Below, piece after piece: positions 24,880 through 53,920 of a stretch of DNA of 64,000 bases. A program made the position numbers and the translations under genes. The notes beneath the pieces were generated by a model. It saw only the letters and a program-made list of their open reading frames with translations. It searched no databases and had not been told where the DNA came from. Source of the DNA: a virus (taxonomy: Duplodnaviria; Caudoviricetes); IMG/VR virus record IMGVR_UViG_3300031994_000065, positions 1 through 64,000 of that record; one strand, 5' to 3'. The first letter of the stretch is position 1. Every line of letters begins with the position of its first letter.

Positions 24880-24993
24880 AACATCCTCCTTAAAGATGTG
24901 GATCGTAGGTTTTCGTCAATTTAGTACAAGAGAACTCCTACTAAACTCTCATACACCACGATAATATATATTCATAGGTGGGGGCGATGTCAG
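24880..24993 (-). promoter_or_regulatory. Early promoter (CTGACA-N17-TATATATTAT) plus structured leader, copy A
   Basis: Near-identical to 33163-33275 and 34004-34117. Confidence 0.85.
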
Positions 24994-32414: not shown

Positions 32415-32431
32415 CGTTTATCACCTCTTTT

Positions 32432-32443
32432 TAGTGCTTTGTC
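32432..32443 (-). promoter_or_regulatory. Late promoter RACA-N6-TA
   Basis: Minus strand GACA-aagcac-TA. Confidence 0.7.
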
Positions 32444-32510
32444 GCGAGGGGTAAAAATAGGTGAAATTCGGAGAAAAAAAAACCACGCGGTTTTGCGTGG
32501 CTGAATTGTT

Positions 32511-33158
32511 TCAATATGCGAAAGTCATAGGAATACCCATGTCTTTCAACATGTTGAAACAGCTGATGAAACCTTCTCTTGGTTTGAGATACTCAAACCG
32601 AAAGAAGACTTTCCAATTTTCGCCGTAGCGTTTCTTGTAAACTTTTTCCGCTTCTCCGGATTCGAAATTCGTGACGTAGTTTTCGTACGCCTTTTTCGAA
32701 ATCCAGAACCCCACGATTTTTTGCGGAGCGACAAACGCCTCGGTGTAGGCGCTGTATTCGTCGTCGAGTTTTTCATAGTCGTCAACGATGAACTCCTCAC
32801 GAATTGATGGGTAACGCTTCCCATCAATCGTGTAGCTCCCGCAATCAACGGAGGCCATTAACGACGTTTCGCCTTTCACATAAACGCCTATTACGCCGAG
32901 TCCTCCGTTCATGAGCCTAGATTCAGGCCCGGGTTTCGAGCAACTTATCTCGGCTCCGGTGCCAAGAATGGTCAACAGTTTTTCGAGTGCGACCGCAGGC
33001 GACTGCGATCTGTTGACAGCGTTGAGGCCGTGCGCCCAGACCACTCCGTCAGTTCCTCTCGGAACATGACGTGATTTGAGCGCCTTAGCGTTTTCGAACG
33101 CCTTTCTCTCCTCGTCGTTCAAATCATCTGATTTCACACCATTGACGTAAATGCTCAT
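32511..33158 (-). CDS. Early cassette cargo B, hypothetical protein
   Basis: ATG at 33158 spaced from AAGGAGG; terminator at ~32474-32502. Confidence 0.7.
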   Translation of the reverse strand: MSIYVNGVKSDDLNDEERKAFENAKALKSRHVPRGTDGVVWAHGLNAVNRSQSPAVALEKLLTILGTGAEISCSKPGPESRLMNGGLGVIGVYVKGETSLMASVDCGSYTIDGKRYPSIREEFIVDDYEKLDDEYSAYTEAFVAPQKIVGFWISKKAYENYVTNFESGEAEKVYKKRYGENWKVFFRFEYLKPREGFISCFNMLKDMGIPMTFAY

Positions 33159-33162
33159 TTCA

Positions 33163-33275
33163 AACATCCTCCTTAAAGATGTGGATCGTAGGTTTTCGCA
33201 ATTTAGTACAAGAGAACTCCTACTAAACTCCTATACACCACGATAATATATACTTATGGGAGAGGGTAATGTCGG
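33163..33275 (-). promoter_or_regulatory. Early promoter (CCGACA-N17-TATATATTAT) plus structured leader, copy B
   Basis: Leader differs from copies A and C by a few bases. Confidence 0.85.
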
Positions 33276-33292: not shown

Positions 33293-33330
33293 AAGCCAGA
33301 ACCTATTAAGGTTCTGGCTTTGTCACGCTT
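33293..33330 (-). repeat. Terminator-like hairpin duplicated at 34338-34374
   Basis: aagccagaacc-N6/N5-ggttctggctttgtcacgctt occurs at both sites. Confidence 0.85.
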
Positions 33331-33432: not shown

Positions 33433-33999
33433 TCATTTCCAGCCTTTTGCGCAGATAACCTTCGGAATATATTTCCAATACTGCACCGATTGCGCGCAGG
33501 TGTAAAGACGTATTGTCTTGTCAGCCCAACACACAAGCTTTCCATTGTTATATGGAAGTAGTATTGTTTCATATAAACTGATAGTGTTTTTGTCGCGTTT
33601 GAAACTGCGCCCGTTGAAATGGAAGTCTTGATGGCTACCATTACAACAAGAGATGAGTGTGTACTCTCCCTTGTCGAATTTGTTCGCCATCGAGAAATGA
33701 TTTTCTTTCTTGCCTTCGATAATGAATTCTGCGAATCCTCCGTGAACGCAAGCAACCAGCCCCTGATCTGTTACTAACGGGACTGCTTCCATCTGGACGG
33801 CGAACCTTTTCAAGAATGACCATATGGTCAATTTCTTTCCAGTATCCGCGTATCTCACATCGGTGTACAACGACGCAGTTCCGTTTTTGACTTTGAAGTA
33901 CGCGATAACGTACATCGCGCCGAACAGAATTGCCCCTCCTGTGAGACCCCAAATGACGTTAATAACGGAGACGATCGAATTTACCAGAGCGTTTTTCAT
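33433..33999 (-). CDS. Early cassette cargo C, membrane-anchored hypothetical protein
   Basis: N-terminal TM segment (VINVIWGLTGGAILFGAMYVIAYF); ATG at 33999. Confidence 0.7.
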   Translation of the reverse strand: MKNALVNSIVSVINVIWGLTGGAILFGAMYVIAYFKVKNGTASLYTDVRYADTGKKLTIWSFLKRFAVQMEAVPLVTDQGLVACVHGGFAEFIIEGKKENHFSMANKFDKGEYTLISCCNGSHQDFHFNGRSFKRDKNTISLYETILLPYNNGKLVCWADKTIRLYTCAQSVQYWKYIPKVICAKGWK

Positions 34000-34003
34000 T
34001 TCA

Positions 34004-34117
34004 AACATCCTCCTTAAAGATGTGGATCGTAGGTTTTCGTCAATTTAGTACAAGAGAACTCCTACTAAACTCTCATACACCACGATAATATATACTTAGG
34101 AGGGTGGGCGATGTCAG
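34004..34117 (-). promoter_or_regulatory. Early promoter (CTGACA-N17-TATATATTAT) plus structured leader, copy C
   Basis: Leader is identical to copy A. Confidence 0.85.
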
Positions 34118-34138
34118 ATTGAAAAATTATATCGTGTC

Positions 34139-34150
34139 AACATATCATTA
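34139..34150 (+). promoter_or_regulatory. Late promoter with no downstream CDS
   Basis: AACA-tatcat-TA pointing into the structured region. Confidence 0.6.
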
Positions 34151-34328
34151 GATGCATCTATAATACTAATGTGCGGGCAATAGCTCCACTTTAAGGGAAG
34201 ATAGGTTATTGGTGACAAACGCCTAAGTTGTACTCGGCTTATATAGTAGACTTCGGATTAACCCGCCTCGAAGTCGCCGCGTAACAGAATTGGCGGCTAG
34301 GCCTATCTTCCTGGGAGTCGTTTTTTTT
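34150..34328 (+). ncRNA. Candidate ~180-nt multi-branched non-coding RNA, family unknown
   Basis: GGAAGAUAGG (34196-34205) pairs perfectly with CCUAUCUUCC (34302-34311) and closes four hairpins; U8 at 34321-34328; G-U pairs favour the + strand; no ORF. Confidence 0.65.
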
Positions 34329-34385
34329 GCGGACAATAAGCCAGAACCTTGTAGGTTCTGGCTTTGTCACGCTTTTTGTAGTTTG

Positions 34386-36671
34386 TCAGATTGAAATCAT
34401 CGGTACGGTTTTGTGATGCCACGATTCGTGTTCTTTGCGTTTGCAGTGTGGGCATTCGTTTTTTATAATACCGGTATAACCACAGACCGGGTCGCGGTCG
34501 ACAGGGTGGTTCACACTGAAATATCCCATATTTGCATCGTGCATGGCTCGTACAAGTTTTTCAAAAGCTTCTACATTTTGGAGAGGATCCCCATTGTACT
34601 CAATATAGCTTATCGCGCCAGCATCACATTTTTCATGGTATGGTGCTTCGATACGAATTTTATCGATAGCTCGTATCTTATAATACACAGGAACATGGAA
34701 ACTGTTCGTGATGTACAATCTATCGGTGACACCACGTATGATTCCATAATCTTTGCGATTCGCTTTTTGAAATGTATTTGCTGTCCCTTCGGCTGGAGTT
34801 GAAAAGGTTGACCAATTCATTTTTTCTTCAACTTTAAACTTGTCGGTTTTGTCACGAAGATGTTGGACGATTTCCAATCCGAACCGTTGCGAATCCTCAT
34901 TCTCTCCATGATGTTTTCCTGTTAATGCTATTAAAGTTTCTGCAAGACCACAGAATCCAATAGAAAGGGTAGCATTTTTCAAAACTTTTCGTATAGTATC
35001 ATTTGGCGATAATTCATCGCTTCCCATCCAAACGCCTTGACCCATCAAAAACGGAAAATTGAAAACGTGTTTATCTGCAATAATTTGAAAACGGTAAAGA
35101 AGATAATCGTGACTAAGTTGAATATAGTGATCGTATATCTCGTAGAAACGTTTTATGATCTCTTCTTGTGGTGCGTTGTTTCCAAGTTGACGTTTTGCTT
35201 CGAGTGCAAATTTTGGAAGATTAAGAGTCACAAAACTAAAATTTCCTCTTCCACCAGTTTCTTCAGGTCCATTCACATTTCCGATAACACGGGTACGGCA
35301 TCCCATCGTTGCAGCGTATGTATTATAATTTCCTGGTTTATAATACTTCAAGTTAAAAGTGGCATCACACGATACAAAGTTCGGGTACAACCTCTTAGCA
35401 CTCACTTCACATGCACGCTTAAATAAGTCGTAATTTGGATCGCCTGGGTTGAAATTGATTCCTGATTTAATCTGAAAAATCGAAATTGGAAATAGTGGAG
35501 ATTCTCCCTTTCCCATTCCAGCATCAATAGCGTTGAGAGTTTCTCTTATTGCCAATCGTCCCTCTGGAGAAGTATCCATACCAAAGTTGATAGAACTGAA
35601 CGGAACTTGCCCGCCTGACCTAGCGTGTAAGCTATTAAAATTATACACCATTGCTTCCATAGCTTGACGTGTCTCTTCTTCAGTGGCATCTTTTGCTATT
35701 TCATAAATTGAATGAAGACCATCCCATTCGTTTCGCTCGACTTCCATGAAAACTTTACAGAAAACTCTCCATATTTCTTCTATGGTTTCCCAATAATCAC
35801 TAGAATTCTTAATGTCTTTATCTTCGACGTAATGTATCTTTGTTCTATCGAATTCTTCTTTGACTTCTTTACTAACCGTGTGCTTGTCGTACATGTTCGA
35901 TGTCACAAATTGTCCAAATTCAACCGTTTTAGATATAATTTCTTTCACGAATGTTTTTCTGATCCCTTCAGCCATCGCATAATCTTCTGCATTTAGTGAC
36001 TGGCCTCCGAAACAGTCGTTCTGGTCTGATTGAATTGCCACACATGCTAAAGCTGCATATGATCGAATAGAGCCTGGTTCTCTTATATGACCATGACCTG
36101 TTGAAAACCCACCGTGAAACAGTTTCAGTAGATCAATTTGACAACAATTCAACGTTATCATTGAGAAATCGTTATCGTGTTCATGAATGAAATGTTGACG
36201 ATGTGCTTCAGCAAATTCTTTTGGTTGGGTATTAAGCGCGAATTCTTTTGCTCCATCTGATCCAAGTTTAAGCATTATGCCCATTGGACCATCAGTGTTA
36301 ATATTTGCATTTTCCCTCTTATCGTCCATCGCTGAGGCATCAGTAAACAAAATGTCTTTATAAGTTTGCATGAGATTCTTCTTCGATTCCCGACGAAGCA
36401 TATGTTTATATCTGTAACAAATATACTTCTTGGCTATCTCGAAAAATCCGTGTTGCATAAGACGACGTTCCACGACATCTTGAATATCTTCGACTGATAT
36501 TTCAGTACGATCACCAATATCGGACTCTATCTGTTCAATGATATTCTCAAGATCGCGTTCGGTCATTTGTTCGACGGAAGCGTTGTTAGCTCCAACAATC
36601 GCTTTGTAAATTTTCGATCGGTCGTATGAAACCAACGAACCGTCGCGTTTGATAACGCGTTCAAGATTCAT
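34386..36671 (-). CDS. nrdD: Anaerobic (class III) ribonucleoside-triphosphate reductase with ATP cone, lacking the C-terminal glycyl-radical segment
   Basis: VIKRDG ATP cone, TLNCCQID, ARSGGQVPFSSINFG, MGCRTR, GNFSFVTLNL, STPAEG, C-terminal CxxC pair; no RITGY-type motif. Confidence 0.93.
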   Translation of the reverse strand: MNLERVIKRDGSLVSYDRSKIYKAIVGANNASVEQMTERDLENIIEQIESDIGDRTEISVEDIQDVVERRLMQHGFFEIAKKYICYRYKHMLRRESKKNLMQTYKDILFTDASAMDDKRENANINTDGPMGIMLKLGSDGAKEFALNTQPKEFAEAHRQHFIHEHDNDFSMITLNCCQIDLLKLFHGGFSTGHGHIREPGSIRSYAALACVAIQSDQNDCFGGQSLNAEDYAMAEGIRKTFVKEIISKTVEFGQFVTSNMYDKHTVSKEVKEEFDRTKIHYVEDKDIKNSSDYWETIEEIWRVFCKVFMEVERNEWDGLHSIYEIAKDATEEETRQAMEAMVYNFNSLHARSGGQVPFSSINFGMDTSPEGRLAIRETLNAIDAGMGKGESPLFPISIFQIKSGINFNPGDPNYDLFKRACEVSAKRLYPNFVSCDATFNLKYYKPGNYNTYAATMGCRTRVIGNVNGPEETGGRGNFSFVTLNLPKFALEAKRQLGNNAPQEEIIKRFYEIYDHYIQLSHDYLLYRFQIIADKHVFNFPFLMGQGVWMGSDELSPNDTIRKVLKNATLSIGFCGLAETLIALTGKHHGENEDSQRFGLEIVQHLRDKTDKFKVEEKMNWSTFSTPAEGTANTFQKANRKDYGIIRGVTDRLYITNSFHVPVYYKIRAIDKIRIEAPYHEKCDAGAISYIEYNGDPLQNVEAFEKLVRAMHDANMGYFSVNHPVDRDPVCGYTGIIKNECPHCKRKEHESWHHKTVPMISI

Positions 36672-37932: not shown

Positions 37933-38039
37933 CAAATCCCTCCTTAAGGGATCGTAGGTTTTTTCATCTTAGTAGTGAGCTGCCTACTTAACTCTTCTAC
38001 GCGTATATAATATATAAATGTGGGTGGGGGTGATGTCGG
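37933..38039 (-). promoter_or_regulatory. Early promoter (CCGACA-N17-TATATATTAT) plus type-2 structured leader, copy D
   Basis: Identical to copy E from ggatcgtagg to the promoter. Confidence 0.85.
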
Positions 38040-38040
38040 A

Positions 38041-38245
38041 TTGAAATTAAACCCTTCTTAAAAAAGGTAATTCGATTCCGATGATGAATCATATAAGGAG
38101 GCAAACATCATGAAATTTGGTGGTATTACACTTGGTGGTCGGAACATTATCGTACCAACCAGCAGTCCAGTGGAGATAAATCTTTGGTTCTCTACTAAAT
38201 GCTTTTGCTTTACCCCATACTTCTTCTCGGGTATTGCGAGGTTGG
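38041..38245 (+). pseudogene. Chimeric duplication relic: 5' end of the 38978 gene fused to an amidase-gene fragment
   Basis: 38041-38151 matches 38906-39031 and 38146-38231 matches 37215-37300; joined at ATTATC microhomology. Confidence 0.85.
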
Positions 38246-38790: not shown

Positions 38791-38794
38791 TCTA

Positions 38795-38904
38795 CCATCT
38801 CCTTACGAGGCGAGGATCGTAGGTTTTTTCATCTTAGTAGTGAGCTGCCTACTTAACTCTTCTACGCGTATATAATATATAAATGTGGGTGGGGGTGATG
38901 TCGG
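38795..38904 (-). promoter_or_regulatory. Early promoter plus type-2 structured leader, copy E
   Basis: Identical core to copy D. Confidence 0.85.
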
Positions 38905-38924
38905 ATTGAAATTAAACCTCTCTT

Positions 38925-38936
38925 AACAAGAAGGTA
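38925..38936 (+). promoter_or_regulatory. Late promoter RACA-N6-TA
   Basis: AACA-agaagg-TA; degraded in the duplicated copy near 38059. Confidence 0.7.
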
Positions 38937-38977
38937 ATCCGATTCTAATGATGAATCATATAAGGAGGCAAAACATC

Positions 38978-52920: not shown

Positions 52921-53730
52921 TTAGAACGGTGAAGTTTCTTCGTTCAAGTCGGGAAGTTTGTTACTCACCGCTTTTTCAGCTTCACGCATTACCGATTCCA
53001 TGTTTTCCGTGTCGGTCTGGTTATTACCAAACAATCGTGTCGAACCTACACCGTATTTAGTAACGGGGTCGAACTTTGCATTTGTTGCTTTGCCGATTGC
53101 ATCGAGCTTACTTTCGAGTCTCGTCAAAACCATGTCAAACGCCACGCGAACGCTATGTGCTGTTGCCTTGTTAACCGCTCTAACTTGTTCTTCGAGACAC
53201 TTCACGAAGAGATGGAACTCCCCGCTATCGATTCCGTTCATGCCGTGTTTGCCGGTCTTCGGATCATAGTCTTCGATGCGGTAAGACTTCGGGAATTCAA
53301 AGTACGCGCTAACCTCGGGAATTTTATTTTCATCAAGATTGCGATGTATTGCGAAGTAATAAATTTGTTTCCCGTTGTGTTTCATGGTACCAAATCCGAC
53401 AAGGTTGTTGCCGGCTACATCGACATACGCATTTGCGTCTTTACCTTCTTCGAACGCTTTTACGATTCTCGGAACTGCGTCCAAAAGTTCGCTGACTTTA
53501 TTAGTCGGAATTGCCGATGAGACCTGACGCTCGTAATCGTATTTCTCTTTGTCGGTCTGCTCATGTTTCGGGCGAGCCGGATGAATGCGAACTGAGATGA
53601 AAATGTCGTTCCACAAATCGACTTTCAATGTGCTGTTACCGAGTCCTTCGAGATTGTAGAACTGGTAACCTTTGGTGTTAATAGAACGTTTCCCATCAAT
53701 TCCATTGGGCTGCTGATTAAATAACGCCAT
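52921..53730 (-). CDS. Putative single-stranded DNA-binding protein
   Basis: Beta-rich N-terminal domain and an acidic tail ending DLNEETSPF; strong RBS. Confidence 0.4.
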   Translation of the reverse strand: MALFNQQPNGIDGKRSINTKGYQFYNLEGLGNSTLKVDLWNDIFISVRIHPARPKHEQTDKEKYDYERQVSSAIPTNKVSELLDAVPRIVKAFEEGKDANAYVDVAGNNLVGFGTMKHNGKQIYYFAIHRNLDENKIPEVSAYFEFPKSYRIEDYDPKTGKHGMNGIDSGEFHLFVKCLEEQVRAVNKATAHSVRVAFDMVLTRLESKLDAIGKATNAKFDPVTKYGVGSTRLFGNNQTDTENMESVMREAEKAVSNKLPDLNEETSPF

Positions 53731-53920
53731 TATAGTTTCCTCCTTTATTCAGATTAAATGCTTGTGAGCTTCCAAGTAAATCGGTACTGCTAAGAAAAGT
53801 GGCGACTGGGAACGAGCTCGGCGTCTACTCGTTCCCAATCAATTACAGCTTTTCAAAAATTTTTAAAGGAGGCAAGATAACAGAAGTAAATACCAAAACT
53901 ATTACCTTACCTTCTTGTTT

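Follow-up and report, generated by a model that had tools for sequence, protein, structure and literature searches.

The window considered here is a 64,000-nucleotide stretch of DNA (positions 1 to 64,000 of IMG/VR virus record IMGVR_UViG_3300031994_000065) and forms part of an 81,294-base record with a CheckV completeness of 32%. Because a record of this length is only 32% complete, we assign the source to a jumbo phage. The 81-kb record encodes virion proteins and endolysins, and a split RNA polymerase protein at 43146-44732 matches phrog_2986, annotated as RNA polymerase beta subunit (E = 5e-96), and also the beta' chains 7s00_d and 7s01_d of the AR9 non-virion RNA polymerase (E = 1e-6). 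A sequence search of the phage for a gp226-like promoter-specificity subunit gave no confirmed candidate. Sheep and goat gut metagenomes contain the window DNA, and by its sequence we classify the phage as an uncultured AR9-like jumbo phage of the sheep and goat rumen. The NrdD protein of the window is closest to Selenomonadaceae proteins (∼60% identity), and Selenomonadaceae are the likely hosts of the AR9-like rumen phages.

The predicted RNA locus sits in an accessory region, among orphan early cassette genes, and occupies the largest intergenic gap of the 81-kb record. This gap of 377 nt separates a 191-aa open reading frame (ORF) on the left (33433-34008, minus strand), for which a single homolog was found on a 585-nt contig, from nrdD on the right (34386-36671, minus strand), which is convergent with the RNA. 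A divergent early promoter and leader repeat at 34009-34098 (minus strand) is predicted to drive the 191-aa ORF from a start site near 34078; its box, TATATATTAT, lies at 34085-34094 in reverse complement. On the minus strand, the element reads TATATATTAT-CGTGGT-G, which fits the AR9 early consensus AAATATATATTAT-(6N)-G (PMC5312081). The repeat recurs at 24885-24970 (100% identity) and at 33168-33256 (97% identity). Based on this repeat and on a recurring terminator hairpin described below, the RNA module can be delimited as an extra 240 nt between the nrdD terminator and the leftward early promoter. Early promoter and leader units are present not only at these three positions but also at 37958-38057 and 38791-38947; they precede unrelated minus-strand ORFs, and their TATATATTAT-(6N)-G box is of the AR9 early type.

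Two further features of the flanks were observed. The 12-mer GTCAGATTGAAA occurs twice, at 34113-34124 and 34385-34396, 272 nt apart and flanking the whole RNA module, with the second copy overlapping the nrdD stop codon; the pair may be a recombination scar. The nrdD gene of the window is uninterrupted, whereas related loci carry an intein or LAGLIDADG insertion (L009:3149-6532; L033:975-4400): nrdD of contig L009 is a 1127-aa fused form and that of contig L033 is split around a free-standing LAGLIDADG ORF. No glycyl-radical motif able to supply the tail missing from NrdD was found in coding readings of the locus.

An AR9-type late promoter, AACA-TATCAT-TA (AACATATCATTA), lies at 34139-34150 on the plus strand. 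It fits the consensus published for AR9 late promoters, AACA-(6N)-TA/G, in which transcription begins at the last base (PMC5312081); here that base is A34150, the predicted start site. In the 81-kb record, 20 of the 65 matches to RACA-N6-TA fall in noncoding DNA (5.7% of the sequence), an approximately fivefold enrichment, and most of these noncoding matches are 0-41 nt upstream of a gene start on the same strand. The plain AACA-N6-TA motif is not enriched over the whole window (25 matches versus 46.7 expected). Because RACA-N6-TA sits upstream of genes and the AR9 consensus fits, we consider 34139-34150 to be a credible late promoter from which transcription would begin at A34150. Two diverged relatives (contigs L033 and L034, described below) retain the promoter block, CAACATATCA-N-TAGAT, and in them the leader that follows the block diverges to 77% identity. 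Consensus fit, genome-wide use upstream of genes, and the retained block together bear out the late promoter that the initial annotation had seen pointing into an ORF-free stretch. The back-to-back layout of early and late promoters recurs at 38925-38948, there driving a protein gene. These elements show that the early and late promoter grammar of AR9 is shared by rumen phages that likely infect Selenomonadaceae.

We also considered a sigma-70 reading (TTGAAA-18-TATCAT or TCAACA-16-TATAAT). The pattern fits, its second -10 box is disrupted in a variant contig (X6), and the phage promoter grammar explains the site better. A second match to RACA-N6-TA (GACAAACGCCTA, 34214-34225) falls within the first hairpin of the RNA; the diverged type does not conserve it, and it is probably due to chance.

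Downstream of the promoter, RNAfold predicts a 5' leader (34150-34194) with a hairpin at 34171-34189, followed by a domain closed by stem P1, whose 5' strand (34195-34207) pairs with a 3' strand at 34300-34312. The closing stem had been described as a 10-bp perfect repeat extendable by G-U pairs, and this is what we found: the inverted repeat 34196-34205/34302-34311 is perfect over 10 bp and is lengthened by G-U pairs to 13 bp in RNAfold. The interior domain (34208-34299) is arranged in the minimum-energy fold as four hairpins around a five-way junction: GGUG/CGCC (34211-34223), UAAGUUG/CGGCUUA (34224-34241), GACUUCGG/UCGAAGUC (34249-34275), and GCCGC/GCGGC (34276-34297), all on the plus strand. 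These are exactly the four hairpins that had been drawn from the letters.

The fold is stable for its composition. Fold z-scores of the three versions were -2.6, -3.0, and -3.3, the first computed over 171 nt of the window type against dinucleotide shuffles; the 118-nt core of the window type reached -4.7 against mononucleotide shuffles. The core ranks about 6th of 10,824 GC-corrected 120-nt windows of the 81-kb record, a rank in which the best-framed window is compared with a scan in 15-nt steps, and has a GC content of 0.49 (genome, 0.39). The plus strand of the window-type core folds at -47 kcal/mol versus -38 kcal/mol for the minus strand. The earlier claim that G-U pairs work only on the plus strand holds for the window type but does not carry over to the diverged type, in which the minus strand folds slightly better (-34.9 versus -31.3 kcal/mol for the plus strand). 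Because of this, the strand assignment leans mainly on the promoter and the terminator.

ORFs overlapping the RNA stretch span just 34-50 codons, and none is conserved, because a relative has single-base indels and the frames of L033 and L034 differ; the stretch can be called ORF-free in that sense, as first described. A coding reading was tried with a 37-codon minus-strand ORF (34223-34336) and with a 36-codon ORF called in L033, neither of which is conserved.

The 3' side of P1 leads into a single-stranded tail (34313-34339, plus strand) made up of GGGAGUCG, U8 (34321-34328), and GCGGACAAUAA. This layout is kept in L033, L034, and L009 as seven nt, U5, and ACAGACAACCA. It is followed by a terminator (34340-34379, plus strand), which consists of the hairpin GCCAGAACC/GGUUCUGGC (34340-34362) and a U-rich run and is shared with the convergent nrdD; the hairpin recurs at 33295-33318. 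In four sequences, the terminator stem has 10 predicted pairs, 2 of them with compensatory double changes. L033, L034, and L009 have a U-rich run (UUUAUU...) 3' of the hairpin on the RNA strand, not on the nrdD strand. AR9 polymerases stop strongly at predicted intrinsic terminators (PMC5312081). An RNA of ∼180 nt ending in U8 had been proposed at the outset; U8 is indeed present at 34321-34328, but the 3' end is likely the hairpin terminator at 34340-34362, not necessarily U8, for a predicted length of ∼175-220 nt. In metatranscriptome run X8, a single contig was found, which covers 34371-34500, outside the RNA stretch.

Close variants came from contigs of other runs aligned to the stretch (X contigs). 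One of them, X6, is ∼90% identical over 34127-34499 and differs at ∼10% of core positions versus ∼3% in the adjacent end of nrdD. Of its changes within stems, six are compatible (single-sided) and two break pairs, a balance that does not reach significance, and the fold of X6 is equaled by 21% of randomly mutated cores. Among the changes listed, none falls in 34257-34279 in X3, X4, or X6. Clear constraint on the window type is not evident. Several details of the initial description are present in the window but not retained beyond it. In the 5' hairpin (34171-34189), two of the three X6 changes break pairs, and the diverged type lacks this hairpin. Both the palindrome UAGGCCUA (34298-34305) and the alternative pairing CCGCC/GGCGG are altered in X6 and likewise missing from the diverged type, leaving the suggested dimerization without support.

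Diverged homologs were reached via neighboring genes: NrdD led to contig L009 (77% identical), and the 131-aa ORF next to nrdD on L009 led to L033 and L034. L009 stops inside the RNA. In L033 and L034, the parts follow one another as an early promoter; ATGTCAG(A/T)TT; CAACATATCA-N-TAGAT; a leader of 21-23 nt, without a 5' hairpin; GGAAAGAUAC; an interior of 91 nt; GUAUCUUUCU; seven nt; U5; ACAGACAA; and the terminator. We refer to this as the L type. Its leader has the words AGAU and GGCAAUA in common with that of the window, and the interiors have only short words in common. The predicted L-type fold is a rod of P1, P2, and P3 ending in two hairpins, in contrast to the five-way junction of the window type, so that the four interior hairpins, although reproduced for the window, are not conserved. 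Covariance models R1 and R2, each built from one type, both fail to find the other type.

Within the L type, conservation is concentrated in the core. L033 and L034 are identical at 109 of 111 core positions (98%) and less similar outside the core (nrdD, 86.6%; neighboring ORF, 78.4%; terminator region, 79.2%; leader, 76.9%), and L009 is identical to both over its share of the core (48 of 48). Instead of selection, a recent exchange of the module could account for this 98% identity. The two core differences between L033 and L034 constitute an inverted loop: a hairpin of the form AUAAUUUAC-loop-GUAAAUUAU (L033:4925-4946; L034:1214-1235) has the loop AUCU in one and AGAU in the other on an identical stem, suggesting either an inversion at the DNA level or a template switch. 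In a more distantly related contig (L037:505-615), the early promoter and a CAACAAAATAGATC remnant abut the terminator hairpin without an RNA body. Because the promoter remnant there meets the terminator directly, the RNA behaves as a discrete module. A weak precomputed Acb2/Tad1 label on the 131-aa ORF (L009 and L033) was not reproduced by hmmscan and was not used to argue for an anti-defense context.

Covariation was sought in P1. Between the window and the L033/L034 type, pair 3 of the 10-bp core changes from G-C to A-U and pair 10 from G-C to C-G; both sides are changed and no pair is broken. The probability that four random substitutions would keep all ten pairs is 0.0067. Pairs were counted by script; MAFFT left the P1 5' strands of the two types unaligned. 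X6 has the P1 changes A-U to G-U and G-U to A-U, compatible on the plus strand only, and the truncated contig L009 keeps GUAUCUUUCU, the P1 3' strand. Covariation in homologs is therefore found for the closing stem, with its two double changes, but not for the interior helices, which differ between types. Counting the terminator, there are two compensatory double changes in each of the two elements, and because there are only two independent lineages (n = 2), the covariation rests on few events. The P1 covariation would equally fit an inverted repeat acting at the DNA level.

Searches for known families and further copies returned little. None of 4,227 Rfam models (including riboswitches, ribozymes, 6S, pRNA, Y RNA, tmRNA, and SRP) matched the window at the gathering score. 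At E values up to 10 over 34000-34400, nothing was found within the RNA (∼34150-34330), and the few matches were all outside it; L033 gave only far-subthreshold matches on the opposite strand. ARAGORN found no tRNA or tmRNA genes in the 64-kb window. These searches agree with the judgment made by eye that the RNA resembles no tRNA, tmRNA, or SRP RNA, and the Rfam covariance search recommended at that stage matched no described family. The RNA is present as a single copy in the 81-kb record. Searches with blastn against INPHARED phages gave no match, and when viral, metagenome, and genome contig collections were scanned for exact patterns, the outcome was either nothing or chance matches in unrelated GC-rich DNA. 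The terminator hairpin is common to 18 viral loci, none of which has the RNA. Three distant jumbo relatives found via NrdD (48-66% identical; records of 193-238 kb) had no R1 or R2 match, and 14 intein-type nrdD loci in Selenomonadaceae assemblies had no module, early promoter, or late promoter downstream. In 141 Selenomonadaceae-family genomes, R1 gave one match (E = 0.02 per genome), inside a probable coding region and due to a 15-mer shared by chance, and R2 gave none; we therefore see no host-derived or prophage copy among these genomes. The RNA matches no described family; in AR9, both the promoter grammar and the concept of a noncoding late gene have precedents.

Taken at the level of sequence, the locus is probably a genuine, narrowly distributed late noncoding RNA of a new family. 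The type and conservation of the promoter, selection for P1 pairing, constraint on the L-type core, the noncoding nature of the stretch, and the orientation of the terminator are all conclusions drawn from sequence comparison. On these grounds, we hold the existence of a genuine, selected RNA gene here to be somewhat better than an even proposition. That it is a stand-alone late gene read by the phage non-virion RNA polymerase and yielding a compact, P1-clamped domain is, in our estimate, marginally above even. In this model, the non-virion polymerase would start at A34150 from the AACA-N6-TA promoter, transcribe rightwards, and stop at the hairpin 34340-34362, possibly in part at U8, giving an RNA of ∼175-220 nt. 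P1 would clamp the compact domain, preceded by a short 5' leader and followed by the U-rich single-stranded tail and the terminator. Such an RNA would be expected to accumulate late in infection and may act in trans as a stable, structured molecule bound to a protein partner, with the clamp and the conserved flanks providing a common frame and the interior being clade specific.

If the RNA gene is genuine, binding to a protein is its most plausible mode of action, at a confidence that falls a little short of even. Protein binding is favored because sequence conservation in the L type spans the entire core, not its stems alone, and because the leader, the obvious base-pairing seed, evolves fastest. 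Of the roles suggested initially, a protein sponge is possible; a packaging-type RNA and a 6S-like RNA polymerase decoy have no Rfam match and found no support. A more specific version, which we consider distinctly unlikely, is a clade-specific clamped cassette: a fixed frame of promoter, P1, tail, and terminator would hold an interior of ∼90 nt that is swapped or remodeled between clades and nearly frozen within one. An interior that differs in this way between clades yet is 98% identical within one, against flanks at ∼80%, would be expected of a specificity determinant that coevolves with a partner, for example, an RNA decoy or an anti-defense or immunity RNA.

The rival that survives best, though still unlikely, is that the role of the late promoter is to direct convergent antisense transcripts against nrdD (and, in the relatives, against nrdD and the 131-aa ORF), shutting these genes down late through transcriptional interference or 3'-end duplexes, with the fold being a 5' stabilizer or an attenuator ahead of a leaky terminator. 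The RNA does converge on nrdD and has the terminator hairpin in common with it, and a U-tract followed by a second hairpin could work as a two-step attenuator; in AR9, late promoters drive antisense transcripts, mostly seen late in infection (PMC5312081). The placement of the U-rich run on the RNA strand in L033, L034, and L009, however, argues for a stop before the coding region, and near identity of the 111-nt L-type core exceeds what a stabilizer would need.

We give a still lower probability to a trans-acting small RNA that would act by base pairing, with the single-stranded leader or U-rich tail as the seed or chaperone site and the core merely stabilizing the molecule. Chaperone-dependent small RNAs typically have a U-rich linker, a terminator hairpin, and a U tail in this order, and the RNA has this layout as well as leader and tail words common to both types. 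Against this, a duplex-energy scan of 72 translation-start regions of the 81-kb record, a crude method, gave a best energy of -66.8 kcal/mol versus a shuffled mean of -64.2 kcal/mol, not beyond controls, and the leader diverges fastest between L033 and L034, the opposite of how a seed behaves.

Similarly improbable is a DNA-level element without an RNA role, in which the 10-bp inverted repeats would delimit a small mobile or recombination module or would serve as a protein-binding or origin-like site. P1 covariation keeps inverted-repeat symmetry on both strands, presence of the module varies between relatives, the 12-mer GTCAGATTGAAA at 34113 and 34385 brackets it in the window, and the loop inversion between L033 and L034 is a DNA-level event. 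Yet the 81-kb record has one copy and none elsewhere, the repeats have no target-site duplication beside them, and the second, bracketing copy of the 12-mer is absent from L033 and L034. Such an element would also leave the conserved late promoter and the strand-specific terminator tail unexplained. Least probable is a nonfunctional spacer between terminator and promoter that folds by chance: the window-type variant does keep pace with its flanks in evolutionary rate, structure is not significantly preserved by its changes, and the interior is not conserved between the two types, but P1 covaries, the L-type core is 98% identical against flanks at 77-87%, the late promoter is conserved, and the fold is an outlier in the genome-wide scan.

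The predicted late RNA gene can be compared with several known systems. AR9 is alike in its late AACA-(6N)-TA promoters with the start at the last base and its early TATATATTAT-(6N)-G promoters (Lavysh et al. 2017, PMC5312081). AR9 also has one late noncoding gene, a tRNA, and late antisense transcripts (PMC5312081), and the tRNA gene is thus a precedent for a late noncoding gene. The differences are that the RNA here is not a tRNA and has no INPHARED counterpart by blastn. AR9 promoters are read from uracil-containing DNA, and those of this phage may be as well. Y RNAs, including the bacterial and phage YrlA type, similarly have paired 5' and 3' ends that form a conserved stem closing a variable multihelix interior, and a U-rich 3' part. 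Unlike them, the RNA here has no Rfam match and no Ro-binding stem sequence visible by eye; Ro60/TROVE (PF05731) and RtcB are absent from the 81-kb record (∼32% of the genome). The phi29 pRNA and 6S RNA are of similar size, noncoding, and phage encoded or phage used. pRNA is a three-way junction with loops that pair between molecules, and 6S RNA forms an extended rod interrupted by a central bubble. The fold predicted here has neither shape, Rfam gives no match to either RNA, and the putative dimerization palindrome is not conserved. In retrons, the terminal inverted repeats (a1/a2) of the msr-msd RNA close a set of hairpins as P1 does, but here antisense nrdD follows on the RNA strand, and no reverse transcriptase (PF00078) is present in the 81-kb record.

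Proteins account for most of what is known about jumbo phages that encode multisubunit RNA polymerases of their own; few structured noncoding RNAs have been described from such phages and, to our knowledge, none from uncultured rumen relatives of AR9. With its predicted late promoter, covarying clamped fold, and defined terminator, the locus is a compact test case, and natural variants (two interior types and one relative without the RNA) could be used to find the partner and role of the RNA. The early and late AR9 promoter grammar helps to annotate expression timing in metagenomic phages. Should the RNA prove to be a decoy or specificity RNA, late regulation or counter-defense in jumbo phages would gain an RNA layer.

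Two other folded regions emerged from the same scan. At 53731-53920 (minus strand), which ranks 6th in the fold scan, a late-promoter match (AACAAGAAGGTA, 53919-53908) is separated by 177 nt from the downstream gene start at 53730. In this leader, CCUCCUUU is complementary to the AAAGGAGG ribosome-binding site of the gene, and a GGGAACGAG/CUCGUUCCC hairpin is followed by a U-rich run; the region may be a late 5'-untranslated-region attenuator. After GC correction, the 81-kb scan gives its strongest fold, on both strands, at 32455-32634, in the intergenic region 32415-32510 and the start of a 218-aa gene.
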